From Eledone cirrhosa (Eukaryota), in the NCBI GenBank assembly GCA_964016885.1, contig OZ024741.1, positions 52,514,001 to 52,578,000 on the forward strand: DNA of 64,000 bases, given 5' to 3'. Both the position numbers and the translations under genes were made by a program. Shown one piece after another: positions 3,316 to 61,442 of the stretch (positions within the stretch are counted from its first letter, which is position 1; every line of letters starts with the position of its first letter). The notes beneath the pieces were generated by a model, which worked only from the letters and a program-made list of their open reading frames with translations, did no database searches and was not told where the DNA came from.

Positions 3316-3349
<34 letters not shown>

Positions 3350-3385
3350 ATATAAGATCAAAAGATGGTTAAAGGAGTTCCATGT

Positions 3386-3454
3386 ATTTTATTATGCGCA
3401 TTTCAAAAACAAACATCATCATGCAATAATATTTGTGTCTTCATCAGATAAAAC
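3386..3454 (-). ncRNA. Type I hammerhead ribozyme (mirror copy)
   Basis: Reverse complement of the 3575-3644 motif with intact core. Confidence 0.78.
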
Positions 3455-3574
3455 AGGAGAACATGATATGAAAGCTAAAAAACACCTGTGGACAGTGCAG
3501 TTTTAAATCAACATATGTTGATTTAAAACTGCACTGTCCACAGGTGTTTTTTAGCCTTCATATCATGTTCTCCT

Positions 3575-3644
3575 GTTTTATCTGATGAAAACACAAATAT
3601 TATTGCATGATGATGTTTGTTTTTTGAAATGCGCATAATAAAAT
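3575..3644 (+). ncRNA. Type I hammerhead ribozyme
   Basis: Stem I TTTTAT/ATAAAA, core CTGATGA (3582-3588), paired stem II, GAAA (3626-3629), palindromic stem III TGCGCA, cleavage triplet AUA. Confidence 0.8.
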
Positions 3645-3766
3645 ACATGGAACTCCTTTAACCATCTTTTGATCTTATATTATGTATACTCCTGTCCTAC
3701 AAACTGTAGAGTGCTTCTTATCCGATATCTGCATTGCTTTATTGTACTACAATAAAACTCACCTCC

Positions 3767-3862
<96 letters not shown>

Positions 3863-3883: not shown

Positions 3884-4199
<316 letters not shown>

Positions 4200-4479
4200 G
4201 CTTTAAAATAGTTACTTTAAATGTGTGGCACATATTCCACAATACTGTTGTGGTCACAAATAATACTTCTTCGATGTCTGACTTCTTGTAGAGCTTTCAC
4301 TGTAGAAGTCAGTTTAATACATTCCAACCTCATGGAATATAAAACCACAAGTTAGGATATACTTGAACTTTGTGTTGTGGACCAATAAATAACTCATGAA
4401 TTTCACAGTAGTTTAGCTTTTGTGGCATATAATTTCCTATAGACTAATGGAAAATTCGAGTGTGGTAGTCACTTATTAA

Positions 4480-11627: not shown

Positions 11628-12420
11628 AAACTTTTTAATAACATTTCTACTGCTACCACTACTACTACTACTGCTGCTGTAGCTACTACTACTACTACTA
11701 CTACTTCAACAACAACAACAACAACAACAACGAGAGAGAGAGAGCAGTGTCTGTGTCTATCTACACAGATGTACTGCAAGAGATAGCCTCTCAAGGCACA
11801 CGCTACCGTCCAAAACCAATAACAATAACAAATTTAGGTAAACGGTTTTTCATTAAAAAAGAAATGTATAAGAGTACTCTATTCTCGAGAATCCTTCTCG
11901 AAGACAGCGAAGACTAAATTAACTAAAGAAGAAACACGTATATTGCTTGAATTGGGCCAATTATTTTCCAATAGATTTCGTTTTTAACTAACATACTTCA
12001 AAATTAGGGAGAACTATAACCATCTTTTAAAATTATTTATTCATTTATTTTAAATTATATTTCCATTCTGAAGACACTTCACATTTTTTCCCTTCACACG
12101 TGTCTGAGCAAATATAAATATAGGAAATAACATTTTTATTCTGATTTATAATAGTATATACGTCCGATGTAAGTAGATTAAATTTTCACGTTTGTTTTTT
12201 ACTTTTCTTTTGTTTGTGTAATTTATTTTTGTTGGGGTAGTTTTTTTTTACGCATAACATGCCAGAAGTGTCATAAAATGCATAAATTATTGCACAAACA
12301 TATACACCCACGCAAACGCGCATATATATATATATATATAACGAAGGAAATGTGGTAAGGAACTAGGTGGACCATAACGCACCAAAGTACTCAATACTTG
12401 AGGTAGTAGAGTGGGTAATA

Positions 12421-12532
12421 GGAACCAGTAAGACCCCGACAGCTGAGCTCAAGCCGTTTCGACGGCTAATTCTGGACTAAATGAAAATTTATCCTGGTAT
12501 TTAAATAGCCGATCTTCTCAAGGGGTAATTCC
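12421..12532 (-). ncRNA. Type I hammerhead ribozyme, U3-A8 variant
   Basis: Reverse complement of 17881-17992. Confidence 0.7.
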
Positions 12533-13650
12533 ATATATGGTCAAAGTGATTGTCAAAAATCAGTAGTAATTCTGTGGTTGCAAATTAGTAGGGGAGATGG
12601 TGGCTAAACCTGCCAGTAGGAGAAAGAGGGGAGGGGTGGAGTAGCCCCAATCAAGCGTTTGTAGTGCCAGCTACAGCTGGGCATGAGGTCAAAGAAGATA
12701 CAGGGGAGGGGGAGGGGGAGGAAGTCGGAACGGTAGGTAGAACAATGGAGGGTAGAAATATATAGGAAAGAAAAAATACTGAGAGTGAAGAAAAGCAAAT
12801 AAGTGTAAAGAAAAACAAATGAGTGTAAAGAAAAAATTAAAGTAAATTAAATTCTACGACCTAGGTCTCTAGCTATTGTTAGTCTAGAATAAATAAATAA
12901 AGAAAGAAAGAAAGAAGTAAAGAAAGAAATAAAGAAATAACGAAATAAGTAAAAGAACTAGGTGGGACGGATAGGCGAGGACCCTTTTAAGAGGTATAAG
13001 TACGTAAATGATACGGTGACGGGTCAACAAAAGGGGCCAAAATACTAAAGAGACTACCACGAAATAAACAATAAAGGTTTCCATCCCGGGCACAATTCCA
13101 GCAACCACCCAGTGCAGCAAAGTGAACTAATACGAGATAATAATTCTGAGTCCCGAGAAAAATATATACTAATGCTAACTCTAAAAGATCTAAAACAAGC
13201 TACATGAAAGTTCGTACGAAGTAAAGGTAGAATACGGAAGAATAAATTCAGAATCCACCCCGCCCAAAAGAAAAGCGAAGAAAGAAATACTGAAACGAAA
13301 AAATAAGGCATAAGTGCCACTAAGAAATATAGAGGGCACAGAGAATAGTGGGAGCGGTCGGAAAAAGGGGACAAGTATCCGGGGTCTAAACCAACTGCTA
13401 TAAAGGGCAGAGTCCGCCAAATCTATCCTAGACTAGGGGAGGGGGTGGGGGTGCTAAGGCTACAAGGGGCCAAAGGGCAGCCTCGGGTGGGCGAGAAAAG
13501 ACGCCGACAAAGGAGAAGAGCTGGGGTAGAAGGACTAAGGAGAGAGGGGGGAAGGAAGTAAATCAAGGAAGCGATAAAAGAATACAAAGAAGATCTTACG
13601 TCTCCCTTGGCAAGCAGGGGTTACTCATTGCAAAATCGGCAAGTGGGGTG

Positions 13651-15081
13651 TTATAGCCCTAGTCTACCCCCCCCCCCCGGGTCATTATGGGGTTTGAGGG
13701 CGAGGTAAGTCCTACGCAATCTATGTTTACATGCAGTAACCAGTTCATCTTTCTTGTTTAGGAGTTGGTCCGTCGAAAACAGCATTTGTAAAGTTTCCTC
13801 CGAGCATAAATTGCACGGACGGCGTCCTCCCGTGTAAGAATTGGCTCTGGACAGTAATCTCCAAGTGAGATCATAGGTGATGTTGTTGTCCTTGAGGTCC
13901 CATATGTGGCCCGAAAGTGTAGTGGCGTGACGCCGGGCCGGGTTTCGGAAGGTATGTCTATGTTGGTATAGCCGAGTCTTGAAGTCACATGCGGTAAGTC
14001 CTATATAGGCTTTGTTGGAGGTATCCGTCCTCACGTTGCACTGGTAGATCACATTACGGTCTCTGCATCTATTGTCGAGTGGGCAAATAGATCTATCCGG
14101 GCAGTTACACCTCCTGGTCAGTTCTCCACTGCTATTTAGGTTATTTCTGCCATCGGGGTTGAGTTTTTTGTTGTTAGAGGAGACGATGTTTTGTGCGAAA
14201 TTTGGTGTAGTGCTGTAAGAGAGTTTGATGGTATTTTTGTTAATTATGTTGTGGTAGCGGTGTTGTAATGGGAAGTGTTTTTCAATGAGCCTAAAGAATA
14301 GTTTCCCGATGGGAGTTGTCACCTCTGCGTTGTGGGGAGGATTGAACCATGTTACATTGCGTGAGCGGCGGTGTCTCCTGCTGGTTCCGCTAATGGGAGC
14401 TGGACAGTAGGATATTTCCTCCCGGAAACCACTCCGCTTGAGGGCCTGGTTGTAATAAGGCGCATGTTCATCGAATATCCGCTCATTAGCCGACAAACGG
14501 GATATGCGGAGGGAGATGTTTTTGACCAGGTTGTTTGTGATGTTCCTAGGATGGTTTGATCGGCGGTGGATGTAGTGCAGATTGTCATTAGGTTTCCTGT
14601 ATGGGTAGTACAGGTCGTTTTCGAGGTCGAGGGTCACGTCCAGGAAGTTTACTCTGGTCAGGGACGTTTGTAGGGTTATTTTAAATCCCCAGTCGCGGAA
14701 GAATCTGATTAATTGTTTCCGGACCCGATCTGTACTACTGGGGTTGTACCCTTTAAGGGTAAGGAGCCCATCATCACGGTACAATCCACCACCGAATGCA
14801 GGAAACATATCAGTGAGTTTGGCTATTAGGAATAATCCTATAAGATCTGTGACCTCCGCCGAATCCGTGGCGCCCATGCTGACGTCGAAGGGTGAGTCGG
14901 GAGCTCTTTTTATCCATTTAGAGTCGTCAAAGAGTAAGACTGTCTTCCTGGCATGGAGGATGATTTTTCTTTCCTGGTCGGTGATGGGCACAAGTGTTTC
15001 GGCGAAGTCCAAGGCGGCAGTAAGTAGCGGTAAGGTGATTGAAGCATAGTAGCTCTCTATGTCGAACTGTATGAATTTAGT
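13651..15081 (-). CDS. PLE reverse transcriptase C-terminal half + GIY-YIG endonuclease (5'-truncated, open frame)
   Basis: FDIESYYASI (motif A), FDVSMGATDSAE (motif B), LYRDDG (motif C), WFNPP, CNC..CPL..RC, NVIYQC..AYIG, CNLCSEE, LLNKKDE..CKH. Confidence 0.9.
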   Translation of the reverse strand, partial: TKFIQFDIESYYASITLPLLTAALDFAETLVPITDQERKIILHARKTVLLFDDSKWIKRAPDSPFDVSMGATDSAEVTDLIGLFLIAKLTDMFPAFGGGLYRDDGLLTLKGYNPSSTDRVRKQLIRFFRDWGFKITLQTSLTRVNFLDVTLDLENDLYYPYRKPNDNLHYIHRRSNHPRNITNNLVKNISLRISRLSANERIFDEHAPYYNQALKRSGFREEISYCPAPISGTSRRHRRSRNVTWFNPPHNAEVTTPIGKLFFRLIEKHFPLQHRYHNIINKNTIKLSYSTTPNFAQNIVSSNNKKLNPDGRNNLNSSGELTRRCNCPDRSICPLDNRCRDRNVIYQCNVRTDTSNKAYIGLTACDFKTRLYQHRHTFRNPARRHATTLSGHIWDLKDNNITYDLTWRLLSRANSYTGGRRPCNLCSEETLQMLFSTDQLLNKKDELVTACKHRLRRTYLALKPHNDPGGGGRLGL

Positions 15082-15114
15082 TTAGAAGACAGTCTTACTA
15101 AGACTATCTTCTAA

Positions 15115-16536
15115 ACTAAATTCATACAGTTCGACATAGAGAGCTACTATGCTTCAATCACCTTACCGCTACTTACTGCCGCCTTGGACTTCGCCGAAAC
15201 ACTTGTGCCCATCACCGACCAGGAAAGAAAAATCATCCTCCATGCCAGGAAGACAGTCTTACTCTTTGACGACTCTAAATGGATAAAAAGAGCTCCCGAC
15301 TCACCCTTCGACGTCAGCATGGGCGCCACGGATTCGGCGGAGGTCACAGATCTTATAGGATTATTCCTAATAGCCAAACTCACTGATATGTTTCCTGCAT
15401 TCGGTGGTGGATTGTACCGTGATGATGGGCTCCTTACCCTTAAAGGGTACAACCCCAGTAGTACAGATCGGGTCCGGAAACAATTAATCAGATTCTTCCG
15501 CGACTGGGGATTTAAAATAACCCTACAAACGTCCCTGACCAGAGTAAACTTCCTGGACGTGACCCTCGACCTCGAAAACGACCTGTACTACCCATACAGG
15601 AAACCTAATGACAATCTGCACTACATCCACCGCCGATCAAACCATCCTAGGAACATCACAAACAATCTGGTCAAAAACATCTCCCTCCGCATATCCCGTT
15701 TGTCGGCTAATGAGCGGATATTCGATGAACATGCGCCTTATTACAACCAGGCCCTCAAGCGGAGTGGTTTCCGGGAGGAAATATCCTACTGTCCAGCTCC
15801 CATTAGCGGAACCAGCAGGAGACACCGCCGCTCACGCAATGTAACATGGTTCAATCCTCCCCACAACGCAGAGGTGACAACTCCCATCGGGAAACTATTC
15901 TTTAGGCTCATTGAAAAACACTTCCCATTACAACACCGCTACCACAACATAATTAACAAAAATACCATCAAACTCTCTTACAGCACTACACCAAACTTCG
16001 CACAAAACATCGTCTCCTCTAACAACAAAAAACTCAACCCCGATGGCAGAAATAACCTAAATAGCAGTGGAGAACTGACCAGGAGGTGTAACTGCCCGGA
16101 TAGATCTATTTGCCCACTCGACAATAGATGCAGAGACCGTAATGTGATCTACCAGTGCAACGTGAGGACGGATACCTCCAACAAAGCCTATATAGGACTT
16201 ACCGCATGTGACTTCAAGACCCGGCTATACCAACATAGACATACCTTCCGAAACCCGGCCCGGCGTCACGCCACTACACTTTCGGGCCACATATGGGACC
16301 TCAAGGACAACAACATCACCTATGATCTCACTTGGAGATTACTGTCCAGAGCCAATTCTTACACGGGAGGACGCCGTCCGTGCAATTTATGCTCGGAGGA
16401 AACTTTACAAATGCTGTTTTCGACGGACCAACTCCTAAACAAGAAAGATGAACTGGTTACTGCATGTAAACATAGATTGCGTAGGACTTACCTCGTCCTC
16501 AAACCCCATAATGACCCGGGGGGGGGGGGGGGGTAG
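15115..16536 (+). CDS. PLE reverse transcriptase C-terminal half + GIY-YIG endonuclease (mirror copy)
   Basis: Same protein; frame opens after TAA at 15112-15114 with TKFIQFDIESYY; natural start absent. Confidence 0.9.
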   Translation, partial: TKFIQFDIESYYASITLPLLTAALDFAETLVPITDQERKIILHARKTVLLFDDSKWIKRAPDSPFDVSMGATDSAEVTDLIGLFLIAKLTDMFPAFGGGLYRDDGLLTLKGYNPSSTDRVRKQLIRFFRDWGFKITLQTSLTRVNFLDVTLDLENDLYYPYRKPNDNLHYIHRRSNHPRNITNNLVKNISLRISRLSANERIFDEHAPYYNQALKRSGFREEISYCPAPISGTSRRHRRSRNVTWFNPPHNAEVTTPIGKLFFRLIEKHFPLQHRYHNIINKNTIKLSYSTTPNFAQNIVSSNNKKLNPDGRNNLNSSGELTRRCNCPDRSICPLDNRCRDRNVIYQCNVRTDTSNKAYIGLTACDFKTRLYQHRHTFRNPARRHATTLSGHIWDLKDNNITYDLTWRLLSRANSYTGGRRPCNLCSEETLQMLFSTDQLLNKKDELVTACKHRLRRTYLVLKPHNDPGGGGG

Positions 16537-17311
16537 ACTAGGGCTATAACACCCCACTTGCCGATTTTGCAATGAGTAACCCCTGCTTGCCAAGGGAGAC
16601 GTAAGATCTTCTTTGTATTCTTTTATCGCTTCCTTGATTTCCTTCCTTCCCCCTCTCTCCTTAGTCCTTCTACCCCAGCTCTTCTCCTTTGTCGGCGTCT
16701 TTTCTCGCCCACCCGAGGCTGCCCTTTGGCCCTTTGTAGCCTTAGCACCCCCACCCCCTCCCCTAGTCTAGGATAGATTTGGCGGACTCTGCCCTTTATA
16801 GCAGTTGGTTTAGACCCCGGATACTTGTCCCCTTTTTCCGACCGCTCCCACTATTCTCTGTGCCCTCTATATTTCTTAGTGGCACTTATGCCTTATTTTT
16901 TCGTTTCAGTATTTCTTTCTTCGCTTTTCTTTTGGGCGGGGTGGATTCTGAATTTATTCTTCCGTATTCTACCTTTACTTCGTACGAACTTTCATGTAGC
17001 TTGTTTTAGATCTTTTAGAGTTAGCATTAGTATATATTTTTCTCGGGACTCAGAATTATTATCTCGTATTAGTTCACTTTGCTGCACTGGGTGGTTGCTG
17101 GAATTGTGCCCGGGATGGAAACCTTTATTGTTTATTTCGTGGTAGTCTCTTTAGTATTTTGGCCCCTTTTGTTGACCCGTCACCGTATCATTTACGTACT
17201 TATACCTCTTAAAAGGGTCCTCGCCTATCCGTCCCACCTAGTTCTTTTACTTATTTCGTTATTTCTTTATTTCTTTCTTTACTTCTTTCTTTCTTTATTT
17301 ATTTATTTATT

Positions 17312-17507
17312 GGTGGATTGGCAGGTGGTGGATTGGCAGTATTGGTAGAGGGTCGGACGCCATGCTTTCCAGCATAGTTATGTCCCTTTATGATCTGAGT
17401 TCAAATCCCGCCGAGGTTGACTTTGCCTTTCATCCTTACGGGGTCGATAAAATAAAGTACCAGTAATGCACTGGGTAATTGCTGGCCTTGTGCCTAAAGT
17501 AGAAACA
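17312..17507 (+). mobile_element. SINE family A inserted in the right arm of the PLE palindrome
   Basis: Absent from the left arm (empty site ~12885-12900); lies within (TTTA)n. Confidence 0.9.
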
Positions 17508-17880
17508 TTTATTTATTTATTTATTCTAGACTAACAATAGCTAGAGACCTAGGTCGTAGAATTTAATTTACTTTAATTTTTTCTTTACACTCATTTGTTT
17601 TTCTTTACACTTATTTGCTTTTCTTCACTCTCAGTATTTTTTCTTTCCTATATATTTCTACCCCCCATTGTTCTACCTACCGTTCCGACTTCCTCCCCCT
17701 CCCCCTCCCCTGTATCTTCTTTGACCTCATGCCCAGCTGTAGCTGGCACTACAAACGCTTGATTGGGGCTACTCCACCCCTCCCCTCTTTCTCCTACTGG
17801 CAGGTTTAGCCACCATCTCCCCTACTAATTTGCAACCACAGAATTACTACTGATTTTTGACAATCACTTTGACCATATAT

Positions 17881-17990
17881 GGAATTACCCCTTGAGAAGA
17901 TCGGCTATTTAAATACCAGGATAAATTTTCATTTAGTCCAGAATTAGCCGTCGAAACGGCTTGAGCTCAGCTGTCGGGGTCTTACTGGTT

Positions 17991-17992
<2 letters not shown>
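17881..17992 (+). ncRNA. Type I hammerhead ribozyme, U3-A8 variant
   Basis: Stem I ACCCC/GGGGT (extended by GGAATT/GGTTCC), core TTGAGAA, stem II GA(T)CGGCTA/TAGCCGTC, GAAA, stem III CGGCT(T)GAGCTCAGCTG, GUC at 17973-17975. Confidence 0.7.
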
Positions 17993-18046
<54 letters not shown>

Positions 18047-18049
18047 TAT

Positions 18050-18087
<38 letters not shown>

Positions 18088-18088
<1 letters not shown>

Positions 18089-18183
18089 CAGGTTGTCCTA
18101 AAAAATTTATACACACTTCAACAGCATTCTAATAAATATTGCCTGTACAGCTAATCAAAATGCGTATACATTTTTTGGGACAC

Positions 18184-18186
<3 letters not shown>
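18088..18186. mobile_element. Tc1/mariner-type MITE
   Basis: TIR-like CAGGTTGTCCTAAAAAATTTATAC / GTATACATTTTTTGGGACACT inside (TA)n. Confidence 0.6.
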
Positions 18187-18265
<79 letters not shown>

Positions 18266-18289
18266 AGTGTATGTATATGTTTATATATA

Positions 18290-18840
18290 TACAACCAGCA
18301 AATTGCTCAAGTTACGGAGTTTGTATATCCCTGTCACAAACTATCATCAAACAACAATGGAATGGTTGCTGCGCAGTATCTCATCACTCTAGGTTGGGCA
18401 GCTTGCAACAAGAACAAGGAAGTACTAACATCAAAACGAGTTTCCTAGCATTTGAAGTCTAAGATCTTTGATACTTACATCCTACCAGTAGTGTTATATG
18501 GCTTGACTGTGTTAATTGGACGACAAGATCACTTCAGAACCACATCATGAGACTTATGACTGGCAACCGGCTTAGTGACTTAGTGACTTAGACCAATTAC
18601 ATCAATTGTCAAGTCAAGAGTATTCAAACTATACAGCCATATAAAAAGATCAACTCGTTGTTGAGTAGGTTATGCGTGGAAGGAAGGTTGACTGGTAAGA
18701 GAAGCAAAGGCCCGCAGCCAAAACGATGGTTTGATAATGTCAACCTACGGATTGGACTTAGTCTTTGCTCTTTAAACTCTGGTGCTGGTGATCGAACTTG
18801 TTGATGCACAGTCTGCAGCTGGCGGAGTTTAGCGTCAAAG
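18290..18840 (+). mobile_element. RTE-clade LINE 3' fragment
   Basis: LKSKIFDTYILPVVLYG and EGRLTGKRSKGPQPKRWFDNV, then a (TAA)n tail. Confidence 0.65.
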
Positions 18841-18859
18841 TAATAATAATAATAATAAT

Positions 18860-18935
<76 letters not shown>

Positions 18936-18939
<4 letters not shown>

Positions 18940-19332
18940 ATAACATAAATAAAGATACTGATGTTACATAAATCGTTTAATCCTTATAATTATTTCAAGG
19001 GTTCTTGCAATCAAGATGTCTTTCATGCATGTGTTGTTGTTATGAGAACGGTATCCTCAGATGAAACCCGATTTAATTATATGCTGCCGGCAGGGAAAGA
19101 AACACACGTCCTTCTGCTCATGCGCCCAGCAGACAACAACAAATGCATGAATCACATCTTGGTTGCATGGGAGAACCGTTGAAATAATTAAAATGATTAA
19201 ACGATTTATGTAACATCAGCATCTTTATTTATGTTATTTTTATACTGAATCTCCATCGTAACTATAAGCTACAAATGTTGACAGGTTTCTCCTGCTTGCT
19301 CTTGTTTTTACCAAAACAATCTATTTGGAATA

Positions 19333-19335
<3 letters not shown>
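18936..19335 (+). mobile_element. Aged PLE-derived hairpin element with tail and decayed hammerhead
   Basis: Imperfect inverted repeat 18936-19243; ATCCT-CAGATGA...GAAA-TAATTA; the left arm preserves TA-AGGAT for stem I. Confidence 0.6.
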
Positions 19336-19425
<90 letters not shown>

Positions 19426-28159: not shown

Positions 28160-28287
28160 AACACAGACACACACACACACACATATATATATATCTCAAG
28201 CGTGAAACTAAAAACCATATTATTTGTACTGCCCCTCTATTTTTTGTTCTCTGTTCATTTATTCAACTATATATATATATATGTATG

Positions 28288-28366
<79 letters not shown>

Positions 28367-28370
<4 letters not shown>

Positions 28371-28743
28371 CGAAGGAAATGTGGTAAGGAACCAGGTGGA
28401 CCATAATGCACCAAAGTACTCAATACTTAGGGTAGTAGAGTGGGTAATAGGAACGAGTAGGACCCCGACGGCTGAGCTCAGTCGTCGGGGTCCTACTCGT
28501 TCCTATTACCCACTCTACTACCCTAAGTATTGAGTACTTTGGTGCATTATGGTCCACCTGGTTCCTTACCACATTTCCTTCGTTATCTAGCTGCTATTCC
28601 CGTAGTAGAGCACTTTCCGACCCTACCACGCCGTATCCAGACTTTTCCGCTAAGCTCAAGTTCTTTCACCCGCACCATGCGAAAACACAACATCGACTTC
28701 TCAACCAAGATTTTTGAACTCAGCCGTCGGGGTACTACTCGTT

Positions 28744-28748
<5 letters not shown>
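28367..28748. mobile_element. Miniature derivative of the 12-18 kb PLE family: 220 bp palindrome + 5' extension + repeated terminus, in (TA)n
   Basis: Same left (TAACGAAGGAAATGTGG) and right (GTTCCTAT) termini as 12339-17995; apex GAG|CTC at 28476/28477. Confidence 0.88.
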
Positions 28749-28810
<62 letters not shown>

Positions 28811-35762: not shown

Positions 35763-35970
35763 GGCGACCTACGAAGTAAATCGTATCATTGTGAGCTCCG
35801 CAAAGGTTTGTTATTTCCGTTTGTTAAAAATTGTCATTTATGGAAAATTTTATTGTTAACTGTTTATAAGCGCACATACATTGTTTTCCGAAAAGGACAC
35901 CCAAAAAGATTGGGGCCTTGTGCCCAAAATTTAAACTTTTATTATTATCAAAAATTTCTTTGAAAAAAAA

Positions 35971-38037
35971 ATGGCTAATTCACCTCTGCACCAAGCAGCT
36001 GAAGGCCTTCCTCACAAATTAACACCTCACACCGACACCACCATTGTAAATGTTACTACATTTGCCAACACAAAAAAAAATATAAGCAGTAGCAATATTT
36101 TAAATTTGTCTCAGGCAGACATTCATTTCCCGCCATTACCAATGAGTGCAGGTGTTAAAGCCTCCACCACCACCACCACCACCGCGACAACCACCACCCC
36201 CACCACCGCGACAACCCCCACCCCCACCACCGCGACAACCACCACCCCCACCACCACGACAACCACCACCCCCACCACCGCGACAACAGAAACAAAAGAA
36301 GAAAAAAATAAATTAACTCGTGATGTCGAAATGAAATCAAGCAAAATGGACTCTTCCCCACCAAAGACGACTGACGTCACCACCACCACAACTGAAACTA
36401 AAATTAATATTAACACAAATAACGATAGCAACAACAACAACAACAATGACATTATAAAACCGACCCTCAGTTTCGCCAGAGTAGCAAAACAGTTCGAAGC
36501 ATTTACGGTAACTCAGGATGATTTAGAAAATGCCAAACAAATGGTAAAGAAAGATGGGTACAGGGTCAGCCCCCCCCCACCTAATAAAATGTAGCATCGG
36601 CGCCTATGCACCGTGTCGTATAGAACAATAAATGTAAAATCGCGCCGAGTGGAACGGGCATCCGAGTCCCAAATCCAAAAAGCTTTGGGACATGTGTGGG
36701 CAAGAAAAAGCCACATCAGACGTGGGCAAAAGTATGGAACCGTGGACGTGTTCTTTGAAACACCAGAGGAGGCTAGAGAACACTCCATGGCCCCATTAAG
36801 AAGTGACGACTTCACACTCGTCCCAAGCTATTGTGGCCAGAGACTCGTAAAGATCAGGGTGACCCACGTTCCACCGGCCATCGAAATTCCCTGGCTAATA
36901 GCGGCCGTCCTCGCCGGCATCGAAGCCAACACAAAAATAATAGCAATAGCAAAAGAAAAGCAGGAGAACTGGTCCGGATATGGGATGGAGCTCCTGATCC
37001 AAGCGGACCAAAAAAGCATTGAGGAGATCCCAGAGGTAATAGACCTCACTGACGGCAGCCACCTTACGGTAATTGTCGAAGGCAGAAGGCCTAGGTGTGT
37101 CGTTTGTGGTGAAGGAACCCACCTAAGGGCTTTCTGTCCTCAGGCTAAAAGGTTGAGGCCACCTCTCCTACTCACCCCAGTGACACAACCATCAACACCA
37201 CCAGTAGCAGAGATGGCAGCAACAACTGTAGCAGCAACAACAGAAGCAACTATAACAGCAACAACCCCAGCAACAGTAGCAAAACCAACACCACCACCAC
37301 CACCAGCAAAACCAACACCACCACCACCCAACGCTTCAGAACTAGCACCAGCGCCTACACCATCCACCACGCCACAACCAAAATTAACGCCTGTGGAGGA
37401 TTTTCCACTCCCCGGCCTATCACAACTGGAGACAGATTGTGACGACGAGGAGTGGGAAACGATATCCGGAAAAAAAAAAAGAAACCAAAAAAGAAAAAAT
37501 TCTCTTCCTTCCCCCTCCAAAAACAAAATACAGAGGGAAACAAATAAACTAAGAAACAAAAAAGTTAGGACAGATATGCCACCATCCACACCAGCATCAC
37601 CAACCCCATCAACCCAAACACCAACACCATCACCATCATTAACCCCAACACCACCATCACCTACACCACAAAAGTCACCAAAATGCGAAACAGAAACAAA
37701 CCCACAACAAACGCAAACAAAACAAAACAACCAAAACGATACACACTACACAGCATTAAATTTGAACAACAAGCAATTATTACACTACATCCAACACAAC
37801 ACCAGCATCACAGAAAAAGACTACACAACAACCCCAAAATTCACACCACCTCCACACATACAAATCACTCGCATCACACAGAAAACGTACATGACACTAA
37901 AACAAAAATTCCCCAAAGACATCGGAGACTTCCGACAAGCACTCTCCAGGAGGATTTATAAGGACATCCTTCCTGAGGAGGCCACAAGCAGTGAAAAGGA
38001 TGGAAAAACCGTCCTTCCCCTACGAGAAGTAAGGTAA
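35971..38037 (+). pseudogene. Tx1 ORF1 (RRM-like region + CCHC knuckle CVVCGEGTHLRAFC), one internal stop
   Basis: Two same-frame ORFs split by TAG at 36592-36594. Confidence 0.8.
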
Positions 38038-38071
38038 GTGGTCTTTCCCATCTTTTCCACTCCTTTTCAAC

Positions 38072-41000
38072 ATGACCTCACTCAGAATAGGCAGCATAAA
38101 TGCGCGTGGCTTGGGATCGTCATGGAAGCAGGGCCACCTGCTCAACGACCTCAGGTCACTAAACATAGATGTAGTGGCCATCAGCGAGACCAGAATCTCC
38201 GAAGCACAGGCTTTCGCACCGATCTTCGGCGGCTACGATGTGTACGCATCTCCCAGCCGTCCGGGATCGGGGGGAGGAGTTGCTGTGCTTTTTCGGAGAG
38301 GTTTGGATCTTGCCATACGGGCCATCTTCCTGGACCCAGAAGGTAAGTTGGTGGTGCTGGACGTGACCAGCGGAGACGGGCAAGCTTTCAGGTTAGTGGC
38401 CGTCTATGCCCCGACAGGAGCAGAGCGGCCTGATTTCTTCCGGCGTCTGGAGACCTTTCTTGGAACGTGCCGCTCTTTAGTGTTAGTGGGCGACTGGAAC
38501 GGGATCTTAGATGCACGCTGGGATTGTGTGGGATTAGTGGATAGGGAAGGATGGTGCAAGAGTCTCACCAACCTGCTCAGACGTTTTGAACTGTCTGACA
38601 GGTACCGAATGGATTTCCCGAATGTACCAATGTGGACTTGGACAAATCGCATAGGGTCATCCAGATCATATCTAGATAGAGTATTTTGTAGGGAAATAGA
38701 TAGGTCTAGCATAGGCTGTCCACAATTCAAGATAGTCAGCTACACGGACCACAAATTCGTGATCTGTGTGCTTGACTTAGATAGGCTTCATAGGCGAGGA
38801 CCTGGCTACTGGAAGCTAAACGCGTCCTTACCAGCGCGCAAAGCCTACAGATACCGGATTAGCGAACTAGTTAAGCGGGCGTTGACCGGGGCCATCGTCA
38901 ACAACAAGTGGTGGTTTGCTCTGAAAAGAGCAATTAGAATAGAGTCCATTAGGTTTAGTAAGACTTTAGCAATAGAGAAAAATAGAGCAGGAGAACTAGT
39001 TAGAAAATTAGACGAGGCGCTTAGCAAAGGCATCGCGACCGACGTATTTGCGGCGAAATTGGCCCTTGACCAATTCTTCAATGCAAAGCACGAAGGCTGC
39101 GTTGTCAGAGCTAGGGTACGTGCTCTCAGACACGAGGGGACGAAAGCCGTTCAATGGGCCCGAGTGGCGGAGGCGCGTCGTGGCAACAAAGCCACGATCC
39201 GGTCTTTAGTGGACCACGACGGGCGCATGCTACTCGATCCCGGGCAAATGTGTGAAGCTTTTCAGCGACACTTCGCTCAACTGTTCGGGGGCAGTGGCGG
39301 GCCGGATCGAGGGATGGACTTTAGTGTCTACCTCGACGGACTGCCGCGGCTTTCGGCCACTGAGGCGGAGTGTTGCGAAAAGCCGATAACAACCGCTGAA
39401 GTACGGGAGGCAATGACTAGTTGCACAAGGGGTAAATCGCCTGGTTTGGATGGTCTGCCCTATGAACTTTACGTACAAATGCCAAACATGTTCGGAGGCC
39501 TCTTGGCGGACGTCTACTGCAACTGGCAACAGAACGGGAGAATTCCCAGCTCTGTGAGCCGAGGAGCGATGGCGCTGCTGAGAAAGGATCCGAACAAGGG
39601 GGATAACATAGATAATTTTAGGCCCATTACTCTGCTAAACACAGAGTTCAAGATTTTGGCAAAGGTGCTAGCAAAGAGGTTGGCGCGTGTCGTTGGTGGT
39701 CTGGTGGGAGAGGCTCAGACATGCGCCATTGCCGACAGATCCATCCCCGACAACCTCCACCTCATGCGATACATCGTAGAGAGGGTAGCTAGGGAACCTG
39801 GCACGGGTGGGTCCATGATCAATTTAGATCAGTCGAAAGCTTACGATAGGGTCGACCATCGTTACCTAGCGGCAGTCCTGAGGGCGGCTGGCTTTGGGCC
39901 CGTCTTCAGAGGCTGGATCGCTGCCATGCACAGCGACATCTGCTCTGTGGTGAGAGTGAACGGTCACCTTTCGGAACCGTTCAACATCATGCGCTCGGTC
40001 CGCCAAGGATGTGCCCTCTCGTCCCTATTGTACGTATTGACTCTCGAGCCATTACTGCACAAACTGGAGACGTTGAGGGGGGTCCCGCGCGAACTAGGAT
40101 GCGGAAGATCCGTGTCAGCATATGCCGACGATGTCACCGTAGTGGTGTCGAACGCCAAACACATCGAGGCGATCGGCACTACACTAAGAGAATACGAAGC
40201 GGTGACAGGAGCAATGATCAACCAGTAAAAGTCAGTGGGCCTGCAGCTCGGCACCTGGAGAGGCAGGTCCATGCCGTCCAACAGCGTAATCGGGCGCTGG
40301 ACGGACGGACCGGTTAAATTGCTAGGGGTCTGATTCGGTCCAGACCTCCAGACGGACAAAAACTGGGACGAGGTGACGAGCAGGGTGGCTTCTCTCACCC
40401 AGAAATGGGCCGAGAGGAAGCTATCCCTGAAAGGTCGAGCGGAGGTGGCGAATGCGTACATCGCATCCGTCATCTACTACCGCCTGACCGTCGTACCTTG
40501 TCCTAAGCCCCGCCTGACTGCGCTGGAGCGTTTGCTGTTTCGCTTCTTGTGGAAGGGACGCGCTCCGATGGTCAGGCGGTCCATCTGCTGTCAACACCCG
40601 CTACGTGGAGGGCTGGGCATGCCGTGGCTGATGATGCGCAGACACGCGCTCAGGCTACGACATCTCCACCTCTTCCTCGAGTGTGATCAGGTGTGGTCGC
40701 CGTTTGCTAGACACGTTTTCCCCCAGCTCGTCTCCTTGACGGAGCTGCAGTCCTGGGTCAAGCGAAGACCGATAGGGAGCGCTTGGAGACTGGAATGTCT
40801 TCAGGCGCTCACAGCCCTCGACCAATCGGGCAATGTGATCGGTGGAAACTCCACCTTGGCGTTCTATAGGGGATTAGTGGAGGGGTAGAGCGACGACGTA
40901 CTTGGAGAAACTCTAGGCGTCGACGAAAATCAACTAGCCAATCTTTTCGGAAGGACTTTCGGGCCGGGGCCTATGGACAACTTCCAGAAATCCCTGGCCT

Positions 41001-41488
41001 GGCAGTGCTACCGAGGAGCTTTGCCAGTTCGGGATAAACTCTACAGGCATGGAGGTGCCGTCAGCCGGGCATGTCCGAGATGCGCGCAGGGCGACGAAAC
41101 CGTCCTGCACGCACTCGTCCAGTGTCCGAGCATTGCTGACTTGTGGGTTTATGTCGAACACCTGCTGTCACGTGTAGGACGGATCCAGCTATCAGCTGAG
41201 TCCATCGTGAGGATTGCCCCGCCCCCTTCCTTTAGCCGGGAAGGGCAGGCAGTTTTTATCTGTCTGGTAGCCATGGCGAAAGAGATAGTATGGTGGACAC
41301 GTTTGAAAGGGCTGAAGACGAGCACTTACCTCTTCGGTGATGCCCTGATTAACTTTTTCAAATTTCATTTGAAAAGGAAAATCAGGGTAGAGAGGGAAGT
41401 GCTCTCTTCCCAGCATTTTGTTGAAAGATGGGTGAGAGAAGCAAGTATGGCCCGAATGAATGGGCCTTCTCTGAGTATGTGTCTGTAA
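38072..41488 (+). pseudogene. Tx1 ORF2: AP endonuclease, RT and zinc knuckle; three in-frame stops, no frameshift
   Basis: SINARGL, ISET, VGDWN, YLDR, TDH; KSPGLDG, RPITLLN, LDQSKAYDRV, VRQGC, YADD; CPRC..ETVLHALVQC; stops at 40226, 40331 and 40886. Confidence 0.92.
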
Positions 41489-41980: not shown

Positions 41981-44100
41981 ATGGCTACAAAAAAGAATTT
42001 TCACAAGTCACTCCCACTCTTTCCGTCTTCTTCTTCCTCAATCGTCACTACATCAGAGAGAAGATTGTCTCTCTCTCTCTTCCTTCTCTAAATGTGTCTC
42101 CCTTCTCTTTCGCAAGCGACGCCAGTAAAGAAAAAGAAAAATATAGTTTCTGATAGTTTCCAAGAGCACGTGCAAACCGAGGAACATTTCTCCACGACGA
42201 CGACAACGACGAAAAATGTGTGCGGTAAATACGGAAAGCCATTTCATTCGTCTGACTTCATGAATAATAGCAGTAGCAGCCGTAAAAACAGCAGCAGCAA
42301 CAACAGTGACAAGGAAAACAATAGTAGCAGCCGCAACAGCATCAGCAGCAGCATAAACAACAACACCATTAGCAGCAACAGCAACAACAACAACAACAAC
42401 AACCACAGCAACAGCGGCGGCGGCAGTCAGAGTAGCAGGAGCAACAACAAAAGTAACAGCAGTTTTGACGACAACAACAACAACAAGAAAGAAAAACCAA
42501 TCTCGTTTGCAGGTATCGGAAAGAACCTGGAAACCATCCTCATAACAAATGAGGAATTACAGGAAGCAAAGAAGATGGTCACGAAAACCGGACACCGAGC
42601 AATCTGCAAGGCAGCCGAAAAGTTTTTCGAAACCCAACAGCACTGTACGGTCACGTACCGTACAGTAAGCACAAAATCCCGTAGGGTTGAAAGAGCTACA
42701 GAGGCTCAAATACAAAAAGCCTTAGGGTTTGTGTGGCAGCAGAAAACGCATATCACCCGAGGCAAGAAATATGCCACCGTGGACGTGCTTTTTGCCACAC
42801 CCCAGGAGGCAAAGGCTCAATCCTTAGTGATGCTAAGGAGCGAGGAAATGGTGTTGGTGCGCTCCTACTGCGGGAAAAAAATTGTGAGGGTCAAACTGAC
42901 ACACGTCCCCTCCGGGATAGCCCCTTCTTGGCTGGCCGCGTCTGTCCTCGTCGGAATCGAGGACAAAACAACTGTACTGCAAGTACAGAAAAAAGTACGA
43001 GAAGATTGGGTCGGCACCTCCATTGAGATGTTAATCCAAACCAACCAGGAGTGCATCGAAGCTATCCCGGATGTGATAGACTTCGATAACGGCACTCAAC
43101 TGCCCATAAGTGTTGAGGACAAACGCCCGTAATGCTTTCGCTGTGGGTCGAAGACTCACCTCAGGGCCTTCTGCAATGAGAAGACCCTGAGAAAGGAGAA
43201 AACACCCCTCCTTCCGAAACCGGCTCCACTGCTACCACCAACAGGACAGGCGGCAAGCACGAGGGATAGGTCCGTGGCACTCATACCCAAGCCACGGAAA
43301 TCAAGAACAGCAACAGCAGTGGAAGTATTAACAACAACAACAGTAATACCAACTTCAGCTGCAACAGAGACTCCACTGCAAACATCACCAATAACAAAAA
43401 GTGAATGAGTGGAGCTGGTACCCCTCCCCGAATCGGACATGGAGTGTGAGGTGGGAGAGGGATGGCAAAAGGTCGCAAGAAGGCACAAACGCAGAAGCAG
43501 CGCAACGTCGCCTTCGAAAAGGGAGGAAAGAAATGAAAAAAGGCTAAAGGCTACTGCAAAGAGACTTCCAGCAGCAACACCACCAACACCATCACCACCC
43601 ACACTAGCACCACCATCACCACCGCCAACAACAACAAGAACAACACCTTCAACACCACTACCACAAGCACCAACATCGCAAACACAACAACAAAACACAC
43701 ACACCCAGCAACAACGACAAGAAAATAGCAGAACCACACCCCACCCCAGAAAAACAAATGCACAGCAATAAATACACACAACAAGAAACTAATGACTTAC
43801 ATAATTGAACACACAGACATTTCACAGCACGACTACATAATACCAGCACCAATCAAAACACCAACGAACATAAGACTGGTAAGAATAGCACAGAAACAAT
43901 ACACAAACATTAAAACGAAATTCCCCAACGCAGTTGGTGATTTCAGAGACTTAGGAGGGACTCTCAACCGGAGAGTATATTCGGATATACTCATAGAAGA
44001 GCCGACGCCCAGCCGAAGGGACGATTCAACGGTCCCTTCACCAGACGATCAAGTGAAAAGGGATGGAGAAACCATCCTTCCTCTACGAGAAGTAAGGTAA
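41981..44100 (+). pseudogene. Tx1 ORF1 of a different subtype, disrupted
   Basis: CTVTYRTVSTKSRRVERATEAQIQKALG homologous to copy 1 ORF1 but diverged; several stops. Confidence 0.8.
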
Positions 44101-44134
44101 GTGGTCTTTCCCATCTTTTCCACTCCATTTCAAC

Positions 44135-47100
44135 ATGACTTCACTCAGAATAGGCAGCATAAATGCGCGTGGCTTGGGGTCGTCATGGAAGCAGGGCCAC
44201 CTCCTCAATGAGCTTAGGTCACTAAACATAGATGTAGTGGCCATCAGCGAGACCAGAATCTCCGAAGCACGGGCCTTCGCACCGATCTTCGGCGGCTACG
44301 ATGTGTACGCATCTCCCAGCTGTCCTGGATTGGGGGGAGGAGTTGCTGTGCTTTTTCGGAGAGGTTTGGATCTCGCCATATGGGCCATCTTCCTGGACCC
44401 AGAAGGTAAGTTGGTGGTGCCGGACATGACCAGCGGAGACGGGCAAGCTTTCAGGCTAGTGGCCGTCTATTCCCCGACAGGAGCAGGGCGGCCTGATTTC
44501 TTCCGGCGTCTGGAGACCTTTCTTGGAACGTCCCGCTCTTTAGTGTTAGTGGGCGACTGGAACGGGATCTTAGATGCACGCTGGGACTGTGTGGCATTAG
44601 TGGATAGGGGAGGAGGGTGCAAGAGCCTCACCAACCTGCTCAGGCGTTTTGAACTGTCTGACAGGTACCGATTGGATTTCCCGAATGTGCCAATGTGGAC
44701 TTGGACAAATCGCATATGGCCATCCAGATCATATCTAGATAGAGTATTTTGTAGGGAAATAGATAGGTCTAGCATAGGCTGTTCACAATTCAAGATAGTA
44801 AGCTACACGGACAACAAATTCGTGATCTGTGTGCTTGATTTAGATAGGCTTCATAGACGAGGACCTGGCTACTGGAAGCTAAACGCGTCGTTACCAGCGC
44901 GCAAGGCCTACAGAGACCGGATTAGCGAACTAGTTAAGCGGGCGTTGACGGGGGCCATCGTCAAAAGCAAGTGGTAGTTTGCTCTGAAAAGAGCGATTAG
45001 AATAGAGTCCATTAGGTTTTTTAAGGCTTTAGCAATAGAGAAAAATAGAGCAGGAGAACTAGTTAGAAAATTAGACGAGGCGTTTAGCAAAGGCATCGCA
45101 ACCGACGTATTTGCGGCGAAATTGGCCCTTGACCAATTCTTCAATGCAAAGCACGAAGGCTGCGTTGTCAGAGCTAGGGTGCGTGCTCTCAGACACGGGG
45201 GACGAAAGCCGTTCAATGGGCCCGAGTGGCGGAGACGCGTCGTGGCAACAAAACCACGATCCGGTCTTTGGTGGACCACGACGGGCGCATGCTACTCGAT
45301 CCCGGGCAAATGTGTGAAGCTTTTCAGCGACACTTCGCACAGCTGTTCGGGGGCAGCGGCGGGCCGGATCGAGGGATGGACTTTAGTGTCTACCTCGACG
45401 GACTGCCGCGACTCTCGGCCACTGAGGCGGAGTGTTGCGAAAAGCTGATAACAGCCGCTGAAGTACGGGAGGCAATGACTGGCTGCACAAGGGGTAAATC
45501 GCCTGGTTTGGATGGTCTGCCCTATGAACTTTACGTACAGATGCCAGACTTGTTCGGAGGCCTCTTGGGGGACGTCTACTGCAACTGGCAACAGAACGGG
45601 AGAGTTCCCAGCTCTGTGAACCGAGGAGCGGTGGCGCTGCTGAGAAAGGATCCGAACAAGAAAGGATCCGAACAAGGGGATAACATGGATAATTTCAGGT
45701 CCATAACTCTGCTAAATACAGAGTTCAAGATTTTGGCCAAGGTGCTAGCAAAGAGGTTGGCGCTTGTCGTTGGTGGTCTGGTGGGAGAGGCGCAGACATG
45801 TGCCATTCCCGACAGATCCATCCACGACAACCTCCACCTCATGCGATACATCGTAGAGAGGGTAGCTAGGGAACCTGGCACGGGTGGCTCCTTGATCAAT
45901 TTAGATCAGTCGAAAGCTTTCGATAGGGTCGACCATCGTTACCTGGCGGCAGTCCTGAAGGCGTCTGGCTTTGGTCCCATCTTCAGAGGCTGGATCTCTG
46001 TCATGCACAGCGACATTTGCTCTGGGGTGAGAGTGAACGGTCACCTTTCAGAACCGTTCAACATCATGCGCTCGGTCCGCCAAGGATGTCCCCTCTCGTC
46101 CCTATTGTACGTATTGACTCTCGAGCCATTACTGCACAAACTGGAGACGTTGAGGGGGGTCCCGCGCGAACTAGGATGTGGAAGATCCGTGTCAGCATAT
46201 GCGGACGATGTCACCGTAGTGGTGCCGAACGCCAAACACATCGAGGCGATCGGCACCACACTAAAAGAATACGAAGCGGTGACAGGAGCAATGATCAACC
46301 AGGAAAAGCCAGTGGGCCTGCAGCTCGGCACCTGAAGAGGCAGGTCCATGCCGTCCAACAGCGTCGTCGGGCGCTGGACGAACGGACCGGTTAAATTGCT
46401 AGGGGTCTGGTTCGGTCCGGACCTCCAGACGGACAAAAACTGGGACGAGGTGACGAGCAGGGTGGCTTCTCTCACCTAGAAATGGGCGGAGAGGAAGCTA
46501 TCCCTGAAAGGTCGAGCGGAGGTGGCTAACGCGTACATCGCGTCCGTCGTACCTTGTCCTAAGCCCCGCCTGACTGCGCTGGAGCGTTTGCTCTTTCGCT
46601 TCTTGTGGAAGGGACGCGCTCCGATGGTCAGGCGGTCCATCTGCTGTCAACACCCGTTACGTGGAGGGCTGGGCATGCCGTGGATGATGATGCGCAGACA
46701 CGCGCTCAGGCTACGACATCTCCACCTCTTCCTCGACGGTGTGGTCGCCGTTTGCTAGACACGTCTTTCCCCAGCTCGTTTCCTTGACGGAGCTGCAGTC
46801 CTGGGTCAAGCGAAGACCGATAGGGAGCGCTTGGAGACTGGAATGTCTTCAGGCGCTCACAGCCCTCGACAAATCGGGCAATGTGATCGGTGGAAACTCC
46901 ACCTCGGCGTTCTATAGAGGATTAGTGGAGGGGAAGAGCGACGACGTACTTGGGGAAACTCTAGGCCTCGACGAAAATCAACTAGCCAATCTCTTCGGAA
47001 GGACTTTCGGGCCGGGGCCTATGGACAACTTCCAGAAATCCCTGGCCTGGCAGTGCTACCGAGGAGCCTTGCCAGTTCGGGATAAACTCTACAGGCATGG

Positions 47101-47535
47101 AGGTGCCGTCAGCCGGGCATGTCCGAGATGCGCGCAGGGCGACGAAACCGTCCTGCACGCACTCGTCCAGTGTCCGAGCATTGCTGACTTGTGGGTTTAT
47201 GTTGAACACCTGCTGTCGCGTGTAGGACGGATGCGGCTATCAGCTGAGTACATCGTGAGGATTGCTCCGCCCTCTTCCTTTAGCCGGGAAGGGCAGGAAG
47301 TTTTTATCTGTCTGGTGGCCATGGCGAAAGAGATAGTATGGTGGACACGTTTGAAAGGGCTGAAGACGAGCACTTACCTCTTCGGTGATGCCCTGATTGA
47401 CTTTTTCCAATTTCATTTGAAAAGGAAAATCAGGGTAGAGATGAAGTGCTCTCTTCCCAGCATTTTGTTGAAAGATGGGTGAGAGAAGCAAGAATGGCCC
47501 GAGTGAATGGGCCTACTCTGAGTATGTGTCTGTAA
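44135..47535 (+). pseudogene. Tx1 ORF2 with stops and frameshifts
   Basis: ORF fragments 44135-44977, 45226-46335, 46522-46758 and 46739-47482 match copy 1. Confidence 0.9.
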
Positions 47536-53751: not shown

Positions 53752-54700
<949 letters not shown>

Positions 54701-55488
54701 TTTTTGTATATATATATATATACAGTTAGAGATGATCCCGCTTAGAGTGAAAGCTGAAATTGTTTGCTTAAACAATTAATTTGTGTTAATAATATATCTC
54801 ATAGCAGCCAAACTTATGGATGTCATCCAACCATGCTCGGGGTTTACTCCTCCTGGGTCTACTGCCTGTTGGTTTTCCCCTTAAAATATGTCCAATACCT
54901 GGTGTGGTATTTCGTGGTTAGTTCAGGAATGGAGGTAAATACTTCAATAAAGACGAAAGGCCGGATTCAAAATATTCCTTTAATATTGCGAAAGTCACAA
55001 TACGTATTTCTATGGCCTGCTTACACCATCGGTTCGTCATAGTAGTCACACTGACTGCGTGCCACCTCCGAATAAATTCTATTCTCTGTTTATGTTTGCC
55101 TTAATTCAGTAATTGATTACTTAATATTTGCAATTTACACCTAATGACGTCACCAGAAGTCTTACGTCATGATCTGACGAAGTAAGCAGATCATAGAAAT
55201 ACGCATTGTGATTTTTGTAATCTTAAAGTATATACGACGAGGGGCCCAATTAGGTCCAAACATCGATTAAAGATGCTTATCATTTGTTCAATTTATGGGG
55301 ACATTCGTATTTTCTGGCATGTTTACATGTCTACATATTAAAAATGTGTATATTTATAGTATTTATATACACATTGATGCAATAGGTGACCCACTCTGTA
55401 TATACATATATAAGTTTGTTGCACACTTCAGCTGCTATCGCTCTTATTAATATGCAGTGAAAATACATACTACACACACGCACACATA

Positions 55489-60889: not shown

Positions 60890-60952
<63 letters not shown>

Positions 60953-60991
60953 ATATTAAATAAATGGAAACTATATTTATAAAACCATACT

Positions 60992-61054
60992 TATTTTATT
61001 ATATATATTTCAAGGGTACCAAGTCACATTGGTACGCTTTCATCAGATAAAATA
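60992..61054 (-). ncRNA. Type I hammerhead ribozyme (mirror copy)
   Basis: Reverse complement of 61198-61260. Confidence 0.8.
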
Positions 61055-61197
61055 CAAAGTTTGTTTTATAAATAGGGACATACCTATGAAAATCATACCT
61101 TATCGATTGGATATTCACTGGATAGTCTATCTAGTGAATATCCAACCGATAAGGTATGATTTTCATGGGTATGTCTCTATTTATAAAACAAACTTTG

Positions 61198-61260: not shown

Positions 61261-61390
61261 AGTATGGTTTTATAAATATAGTTTCAATTTATTTAATATC
61301 ATTGAATATTTACTCCAGTAAACTGCTGAGCGCCCTAAATCAGTTATAAACATTTATATTTGTCGGACTTCCAACAAATTAAATACCCCT

Positions 61391-61442
<52 letters not shown>

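Follow-up and report, generated by a model that had tools for sequence, protein, structure and literature searches.

A short Penelope-like element insertion whose arms meet on the stem III palindrome of a predicted hammerhead ribozyme

In the window (the whole stretch of DNA that was analysed, 64 kb in length), positions 28367 to 28748 hold a 382-base noncoding insertion of a Hydra-clade Penelope-like element (PLE), sited in (TA)n, whose two arms meet at a palindrome equivalent to stem III of the hammerhead predicted for its family. The insertion, here called the mini element, is an inert fragment from a known PLE clade. Its apex, together with other fold-backs of the window and with inversion joints in public reads, points to stem III as a likely preferred fold-back point, one among others and not a required one. 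The mini element and its target consist of the following features.

28272 to 28366, unstranded: target microsatellite (TA)n, left (start approximate)
28367 to 28476, minus strand: left arm, antisense, from programmed terminus 2 (...TTCGTTAT) to the stem III palindrome centre; left terminus as in the 5.65-kb element (12338 to 12341)
28468 to 28485, unstranded: apex, stem III-equivalent palindrome with the core TGAGCTCA at 28473 to 28480; centre between 28476 and 28477, single G/T mismatch at 28471/28482
28477 to 28586, plus strand: right arm, with the stem III 3' half, the uncleaved GUC site (C17 = 28486), the stem I 3' strand, the terminus-1 position (28506), and the tail to the terminus-2 position (28586)
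28512 to 28537, plus strand: Hydra-clade hairpin motif copy 1 (ACTC...GAGTAC), 5 nt past terminus 1; mirror in the left arm at 28441 (minus strand); a hairpin in the centroid fold
28587 to 28676, plus strand: 5' untranslated region (UTR) of the full-length element, missing from the 5.65-kb element; the order stem III, motif 1, motif 2, ATG is that of Hydra loci
28590 to 28613, plus strand: motif copy 2, degenerate, ending TAGAGCAC, 3 nt past terminus 2; recognized by eye where the strict pattern failed to match; 3' half shared with L047, L059, and L015
28677 to 28710, plus strand: ORF start MRKHNIDFSTK, after which codon 12 is broken at its first base
28711 to 28718, plus strand: junction TTTTTGAA, composed of filler TTT and a TTGA(A) that looks like the loop III 5' side
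28719 to 28748, plus strand: third copy, 30 nt (35 nt if from 28714), beginning with the 3' half of stem III and ending at programmed terminus 1 (...GTTCCTAT), found by self-BLAST
28749 to 28807, unstranded: target microsatellite (TA)n, right

The arms of the mini element extend 110 bp on each side of the centre, with a sole mismatch 6 nt away from it (28471 G, 28482 T), and self-BLAST matches them to both ends of the 5.65-kb fold-back at 12338 to 17995 (here called the big copy). As the earlier note had stated, the two elements share their termini, ...TTCGTTAT followed by (AT)n on the left and ...GTTCCTAT followed by (AT)n on the right (sense orientation), with positions given to ±3 nt because of TAT microhomology. 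The right-hand terminus also appears as a loose end at 12418 in all four mapped sequencing runs (3354 reads; 62, 7, and 3 contigs). Any target-site duplication is unreadable within the (TA)n repeats flanking the mini element. Within the arm, the mini element and the big copy are identical at 103 of 110 nt, and by this measure the mini element is assigned to a sister subfamily, so that the 5' strand of its own stem III has to be deduced from the big copy. The big copy has the following features.

12338 to 17995, unstranded: 5.65-kb fold-back element, arms about 15098, with a 5'-truncated RT-GIY-YIG ORF at 15115 to 16536 (plus strand) and its mirror
15084 to 15112, unstranded: non-native apex, in which 15085 to 15099 is an exact sense copy of 15249 to 15263
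17887 to 17980, plus strand: complete predicted type I hammerhead of the family with a U3-A8 core; mirror at about 12433 to 12526 (minus strand)

The predicted hammerhead of the big copy combines the core UUGAGAA (17892 to 17898), GAAA (17953 to 17956), and a GUC site at C17975 with stem I (ACCCC/GGGGU), a long stem II, and stem III (ACGGC-U-UGAG/CUCA-GCUGU; 17956 to 17974), whose loop palindrome TGAGCTCA is centred between 17965 and 17966, the centre that corresponds to the mini apex. The three-way junction is the unconstrained minimum free energy fold, and the descriptor matches it on both arms; the fold energy is unremarkable (z = -0.52). Rfam yielded no hammerhead match at the gathering score, nor any among the 48 rows at E ≤ 5 in a search of 17700 to 19400, an interval in which another family's canonical-core motif was likewise unmatched. 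The call of a predicted self-cleaving ribozyme is based on core and stem geometry, and the U3-A8 core is a PLE hammerhead variant described in PMC4209133. The type I arrangement (C/U)UGAN(G/A)A ... GAAA ... UH with stems I to III was found in the big copy only; the descriptor located no complete hammerhead in 28367 to 28748, where core and stem II are absent. A competing hairpin at 17945 to 17960 (mirror, 12452 to 12467) overlaps the stem II 3' strand, GAAA, and the stem III 5' strand, and might, judging from the fold model, switch the ribozyme off. The stem III palindrome itself is probably maintained because it lets the ribozyme form dimers, and joining would be a by-product.

The 110-bp arms of the mini element thus meet on the stem III axis of the family's hammerhead. 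The earlier note had placed the apex (GAG/CTC) exactly at the centre of stem III, and this precision stands only to ±4 to ±9 nt, since any switch inside the palindrome gives an identical apex. It had also described the third copy as restarting at the apex point, at 28719. The start does fall within 28714 to 28719, 0 to 5 nt before the apex point, but identity with the apex is not provable, as the best BLAST piece against the big copy starts at 28714 and TTGA at 28714 to 28717 matches the stem III 5' strand; the preceding 28711 to 28713 looks like filler. All three segments of the mini element run past an uncut GUC and begin no more than about 5 nt from the loop centre.

The apex of the big copy is of a different kind. 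From the 15-nt sense copy that it contains, it appears that a templated jump preceded folding; the source of the copy (15249 to 15263) itself has a 5-bp palindrome. One X1 contig departs from the window letters behind 15083, and a reading by hand gave the W-F-x-N-x-x-D-K stretch found in the homologues. A 214-nt insertion at 17294 to 17507, present in the right arm only, is a dispersed repeat with at least eight other matches in the window.

Membership of the family in the Hydra clade is indicated by the ORF of the big copy, which has 1760 homologues and joins RT (YRDD at 101) with a GIY-YIG domain at the C terminus (VIY...YIG at 344 to 361) in one frame; no Pfam family was matched by it. The ORF contains CNCPDRSIC at 325 (the CxCX5C linker), CNLC at 423 (CxxC), and CKH at 451 (CxH), all invariant in A1. 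The RWK and DKT motifs are present in 50 and 57, respectively, of 69 long homologues and lie in a part of the ORF that is deleted in the window. The (TA)n insertion typical for the clade is found here, and so is, in the mini element, a pseudo-long terminal repeat (pLTR) in inverted form with a one-sided tail. By eye, the N terminus (MDLHNIGYSFKNIP) of Hydra-1_Obim seems to resemble that of the family; on this resemblance the host, presumably an animal rich in AT microsatellites, might be a cephalopod. Naiad identity was ruled out, the endonuclease being C-terminal here, as was retrozyme identity, which requires at least two tandem units with complete hammerheads, none being complete in 28367 to 28748. 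The 23-nt tail pattern of the family had no match in metagenome and viral contigs.

The earlier note had suggested that the ATG at 28677 is the ORF start missing from the big copy, which lacks roughly the first 245 residues, and this was confirmed. Among 69 homologues of at least 660 amino acids, 49 begin with M...[YF]SxK, and all 49 continue with NIP. Against an N-terminal profile of these 49 (ending at K), MRKHNIDFSTK scored 20.5 bits and ranked first of 81,372 six-frame 11-mers, the runner-up scoring 2.9. The assignment of 28587 to 28718 to the 5' end of the full-length element needs trimming: it applies to 28587 to 28710, but the ORF breaks after Lys11 and 28711 to 28718 is junction. "KIF" was ruled out as the native continuation of the ORF because of NIP in 49 of 49 homologues.

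A census of symmetric fold-backs with a 0- to 1-nt spacer in the 64-kb window yielded six: the mini element with its apex at stem III, two of other families in the predicted stem III register, and three with apices elsewhere. Four asymmetric inverted insertions (18933 to 19333, 4064 to 4300, 53752 to 54707, and 54978 to 55228) were left out of the apex count because none has a single apex; the first of these has a left arm with a full hammerhead and a long stem II and a right arm that begins inside stem II. The apices away from stem III are at 3514.5, 61126, and 15098 (the big copy, mid-RT), two of them with a 1-nt spacer, and since half of the fold-backs have their apex elsewhere, stem III is not needed for making a hairpin element. 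Both arms of the hairpins at 3349 to 3768 and 60948 to 61396 retain an entire hammerhead, and their apices lie about 118 and 121 nt, respectively, upstream of stem III; these hairpins represent two other families with intact CUGAUGA cores and 87- to 92-nt one-sided tails.

The two zero-spacer apices in register, at 61571 to 61676 and 62410 to 62515, keep no hammerhead core. They were placed by AATAAA at +8 and +6 and ACTCC at +60 and +62 from the apex, respectively, positions as in Hydra elements relative to stem III. Both features fell in range in 0.04% and 0.15% of 20,000 shuffles (P = 0.0004 and 0.0015), with ranges set after the references had been seen. The apices are accordingly predicted from these signals to sit within about 6 nt of stem III; the 61571 apex is without the expected U16.1. 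The arms of these two families show no similarity to the mini arm, which makes them independent founders. With the mini element excluded, stem III hits amount to 2 of 4 short or 2 of 5 total fold-backs (P = 0.023 to 0.037 under an assumed uniform 200-nt null). The corresponding insertions (61445 to 61676 and 62190 to 62515, left ends approximate) are built around even palindromes of 106 nt, with arms of 53 nt; both palindromes end in TTCATTCTTTAT, and the insertions have left-side tails. Among the inverted repeats listed for 77 metagenomic Hydra loci, no inverted junction centred on stem III was seen; short-read assemblies rarely keep such repeats. Contig ends near stem III (L014, L036, L059, and L072) were rejected as evidence, as breaks of circular contigs can be arbitrary.

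Public reads (4 of 18 listed runs) were mapped on 12300 to 15100. Among the 15 listed of 25 joints, 11 are opposite-strand and 6 have both ends in 12396 to 12482. Relative to the stem III centre, the mirror centres of these six are at -8, -1, +1, +3.5, +4, and +11.5 nt. Those at -1, +1, +3.5, and +4 nt are four joint classes (12424 to 12468, 12472, 12477, and 12478), three of which occur in raw reads and all four in X1 contigs. Their common left end, 12424, is the point where sister subfamilies stop aligning, so that the mirror reading of the joints is one that we infer; they may be fold-backs of diverged subfamilies, and the sister-subfamily loose end behind 12424 retains GAGCTC at the loop. 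The simple 12451/12444 form expected from the mini element was not found among the 15 listed of 25 joints. Joints were weakly enriched in X16 (5 of 8 versus 26%; P = 0.03), a restriction-site library (apparently NlaIII/MluCI), and showed no enrichment over depth in X1 (5 of 6 versus 74% of depth in the tail and hammerhead bins; P = 0.51). The idea put forward in the earlier note, that stem III palindromes are template-switch or self-priming hotspots, therefore gains modest independent support from the two window fold-backs of other families in register with a predicted stem III and from the four joint classes within -1 to +4 nt of it, but it is weakened by the three fold-backs elsewhere and the mixed enrichment.

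Our preferred, if tentative, account is that the mini element arose by stalling of the RT in stem III of an uncleaved RNA, followed by annealing of two cDNAs, likely primed from opposite target strands, through the self-complementary palindrome. The endonuclease would nick both (TA)n strands. The first cDNA would start at terminus 1, halt after 30 to 35 nt in stem III, and add a few A's; it would then jump to codon 11-12 of the ORF and halt again in the next stem III. The second would start at terminus 2 from the left flank and halt in stem III as well. Both 3' ends would carry TGAGCTCA, and annealing, trimming, and fill-in would leave a zero-spacer apex at the loop centre. Beyond the anatomy, we infer all of these steps. 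The 5' UTR and ORF start are present on the right side only and could not be copied from the left arm, so that the right part must have been made first, from RNA and from the right flank. The end of the left arm at the other fixed terminus of the family suggests independent priming. The third copy carries TTGA past the centre, so a cDNA end would contain the whole 8-mer. This 8-mer alone forms no hairpin (0 kcal/mol), and cDNA ends of the big copy at 12449 to 12460 have no negative-energy terminal hairpin, as compared with 417 of 2713 ends that have one. A palindrome of 8 nt is unable to fold back within one strand, yet two molecules can pair through it, and annealing of two cDNAs is therefore favoured.

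This account also fits the zero-spacer apex of the mini element on the stem III axis, its left terminus shared with the big copy (as expected if primed there), the two zero-spacer hairpins of other families in the stem III register, and the four read joints near stem III. The Poseidon element PAc, as described in PMC11167929, nicks and extends both strands in vitro, initiates at two neighbouring sites of the RNA, works with unprocessed RNA, and is a predicted dimer, but it belongs to a different clade. Three of the six symmetric fold-backs lie elsewhere, so that joining can work without stem III, and the lack of joint enrichment in X1 and of U16.1 at the 61571 apex also counts against annealing. 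The 5' strand of the mini element's stem III is unseen; should the U bulge be absent there, a snap-back hairpin of -1.7 to -3.0 kcal/mol would form, and the lone mismatch, which still permits a G-U pair in RNA, is possibly native, as self-priming of one cDNA predicts.

Such self-priming is the nearest competitor, although we consider it rather unlikely: one cDNA would run through stem III, halt at the catalytic core, fold, and copy itself, with the true switch at the stem III base and the left end later resolved at terminus 2. In Adineta, palindromes at the inverted junctions of PLEs have been taken as a sign of self-priming (PMC3846280). Besides the minus-strand hairpin and the G-U pair of the mini element, it is favoured by joint 12440-12477, which mirrors at 12459, within the strongest cDNA-terminal hairpin of the big-copy arm (12452 to 12467; rank 1 of 2713), and by near-apex mismatches also at offset 8 in the big copy and offset 6 in the 60948 hairpin. 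As a mechanistic signature, mismatches found in only three of six hairpins are unpersuasive. The absence of a stable cDNA hairpin from the stem III form of the big copy weakens lone self-priming; 8-nt palindromes, as inferred for 62410, cannot fold back, and a second step would be needed for the programmed left terminus.

It is improbable, but less so than the explanations that follow, that there is no real hotspot. In this reading, truncation at the 5' end favours short products that end close to the hammerheads, which are sited towards the 3' end, and a few founder hairpins are copied again as whole units, so that some apices fall on stem III by chance or descent. Depth over the tail and hammerhead (12300 to 12487) is far above that of the ORF body in two organisms, reaching 77 times the body median in X1, which points to short copies or sister subfamilies in very large numbers; joints are not enriched over depth in X1, half of the window apices lie elsewhere, and the mini element was chosen for its apex. 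Chance and descent are less easily reconciled with three mini segments starting at the same place or with 61571 and 62410, independent founders from other families. The same depth profile, which in three contig sets falls 11- to 20-fold immediately upstream of the hammerhead, would fit an RNA that began in loop III, by transcription start or nuclease cut, with cDNAs running off there and joining end to end without pairing. This would also account for three segments with a common 5' boundary, but it seems very unlikely, as the drop may reflect loop II subfamily divergence (loose ends at 12490) and the whole hammerhead is kept in many copies. Palindromic DNA breaks easily, and fold-back of long reads does occur, but a rearrangement after insertion or an assembly fold-back artefact is scarcely credible for a palindrome that stops at element-specific termini with a one-sided extension, like other tailed fold-backs, and whose arms differ by substitutions (in the mini element 1 in 110, in the big copy 10 within about 2.7 kb).

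To return to the annealing of two cDNAs, its start sites may have a counterpart across the clade. In metagenomic Hydra loci (77, some near-duplicates), the descriptor found a hammerhead in 31, with stem III mostly palindromic or near-palindromic. The register of the motif (G/A)CT(C/T)...GAG(C/T)(A/G)C was taken from 23 of these 31; of the eight dropped, six had a 3' copy only or a contig end close behind, one was opposite-strand, and one had a weak motif. In 22 of the 23, the motif starts 41 to 67 nt past the stem III centre. A second match occurs in eight (that of L014 spans a later start). AATAAA is found no farther than 30 nt from the stem III centre in 10 and at 5 to 12 nt in 9. Where 3' copies end inside contigs, the end is 0 to 6 nt before the motif in 9 of 17 rows (16 loci), with two near-misses and six that do not fit. 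In the mini element, motif 1 (28512) is preceded at 5 nt by terminus 1, and the degenerate motif 2 (28590, by eye) at 3 nt by terminus 2. On these positions, the GCTC...GAGCAC hairpin, often tandem, is a candidate RT start-site signal. A Hydra-clade two-primer insertion cycle, in which each tandem hairpin would set an RT start a few bases upstream and stem III would serve as the stall-and-anneal site that joins converging cDNAs, mass-producing ribozyme-dead mini-hairpins, is possible but doubtful.

The motif is also present in published Hydra consensus sequences, and no mention of it was found in the accessible portions of the Hydra-clade literature. Examples in the window are at 28512 to 28537, 28590 to 28613, 3688, and 61312, and others are in L004, L009, L015, L016, L019, L030, L043, L050, and L057; in two families of the window, the motif takes the compensated form ACTC...GAGT. 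Among the loci, L014 holds a full tandem. In L037 (2272 to 2567), two different Hydra elements stand tail to tail with hammerheads facing, and in L047 (2497 to 2574) a 3' copy ends within stem III in an AT-rich target.

The comparisons with known systems refer to the accessible portions of the cited reports. The family shares with the Hydra clade of C-terminal EN+ PLEs, e.g., Hydra-1_Obim (Craig et al. 2021, PMC8557442), the order RT then GIY-YIG, the CxCX5C linker, CxxC and CxH, relatives of about 700 amino acids, the (TA)n target, the hammerhead, and the inverted copy with a one-sided tail. It differs in its U3-A8 core, its long stem III whose loop is a palindrome of 8 nt, the position of the apex within the ribozyme, and an 80-nt tail versus the 30 to 40 nt described; Hydra-1_Obim is a different family with another core and stem III. 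Inverted Penelope pLTRs of Adineta vaga (Arkhipova et al. 2013, PMC3846280) likewise have palindromes at the inverted junction, include the first 12 codons, carry a one-sided tail, and have internally deleted derivatives; self-priming was proposed there too, but on an antisense template, and the palindromes were not tied to a ribozyme. The report of hammerheads in PLEs came after that study (Cervera and de la Peña 2014, PMC4209133); these are also type I with a palindromic loop 3 and the U3-A8 variant, and motif pairs 100 to 700 bp apart on opposite strands were noted. There, the palindrome of helix III is explained by dimeric cleavage alone, and a cDNA-joining role was not found in the accessible text.

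Poseidon PAc (Frangieh et al. 2024, PMC11167929) resembles the system proposed here in two RT start sites that define the tail, in nicking and extension of both strands, and in an uncleaved RNA template, but the PAc starts lie within the ORF, in an AC-rich stem-loop, whereas here both precede the ATG and a motif copy follows closely after each. Non-LTR retrozymes (bioRxiv 10.64898/2026.07.22.740005) are also short non-autonomous PLE pLTR derivatives, yet they need complete hammerheads in tandem units; the mini element has none, and its one direct repeat is without core and stem II. Palindromic junctions with self-priming (PMC3846280), as well as palindromic helix III and opposite-strand hammerhead pairs (PMC4209133), are thus already in print. 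No publication placing PLE inversion apices on stem III was found in a search of openly accessible papers and few of their supplements, and the link between stem III and fold-back formation is plausible, partly supported, and apparently unreported. The origin of PLE inverted repeats with a one-sided tail and the role of the hammerhead are stated open questions (PMC8557442), and hammerhead cleavage is dispensable in vitro (PMC11167929). If the link holds, the ribozyme would shape the insertion structure without cleaving, stem III being a cleavage-independent cDNA join point while an RNA motif fixes the RT start, and stem III as a fold-back site would connect ribozyme shape with element copying.

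Elsewhere in the window, two tandem non-LTR retrotransposons (35935 to 41488 and 42092 to 47482), each with ORF1 and an AP-endonuclease-RT ORF2 and both interrupted, were recognized by eye from the ORF list.
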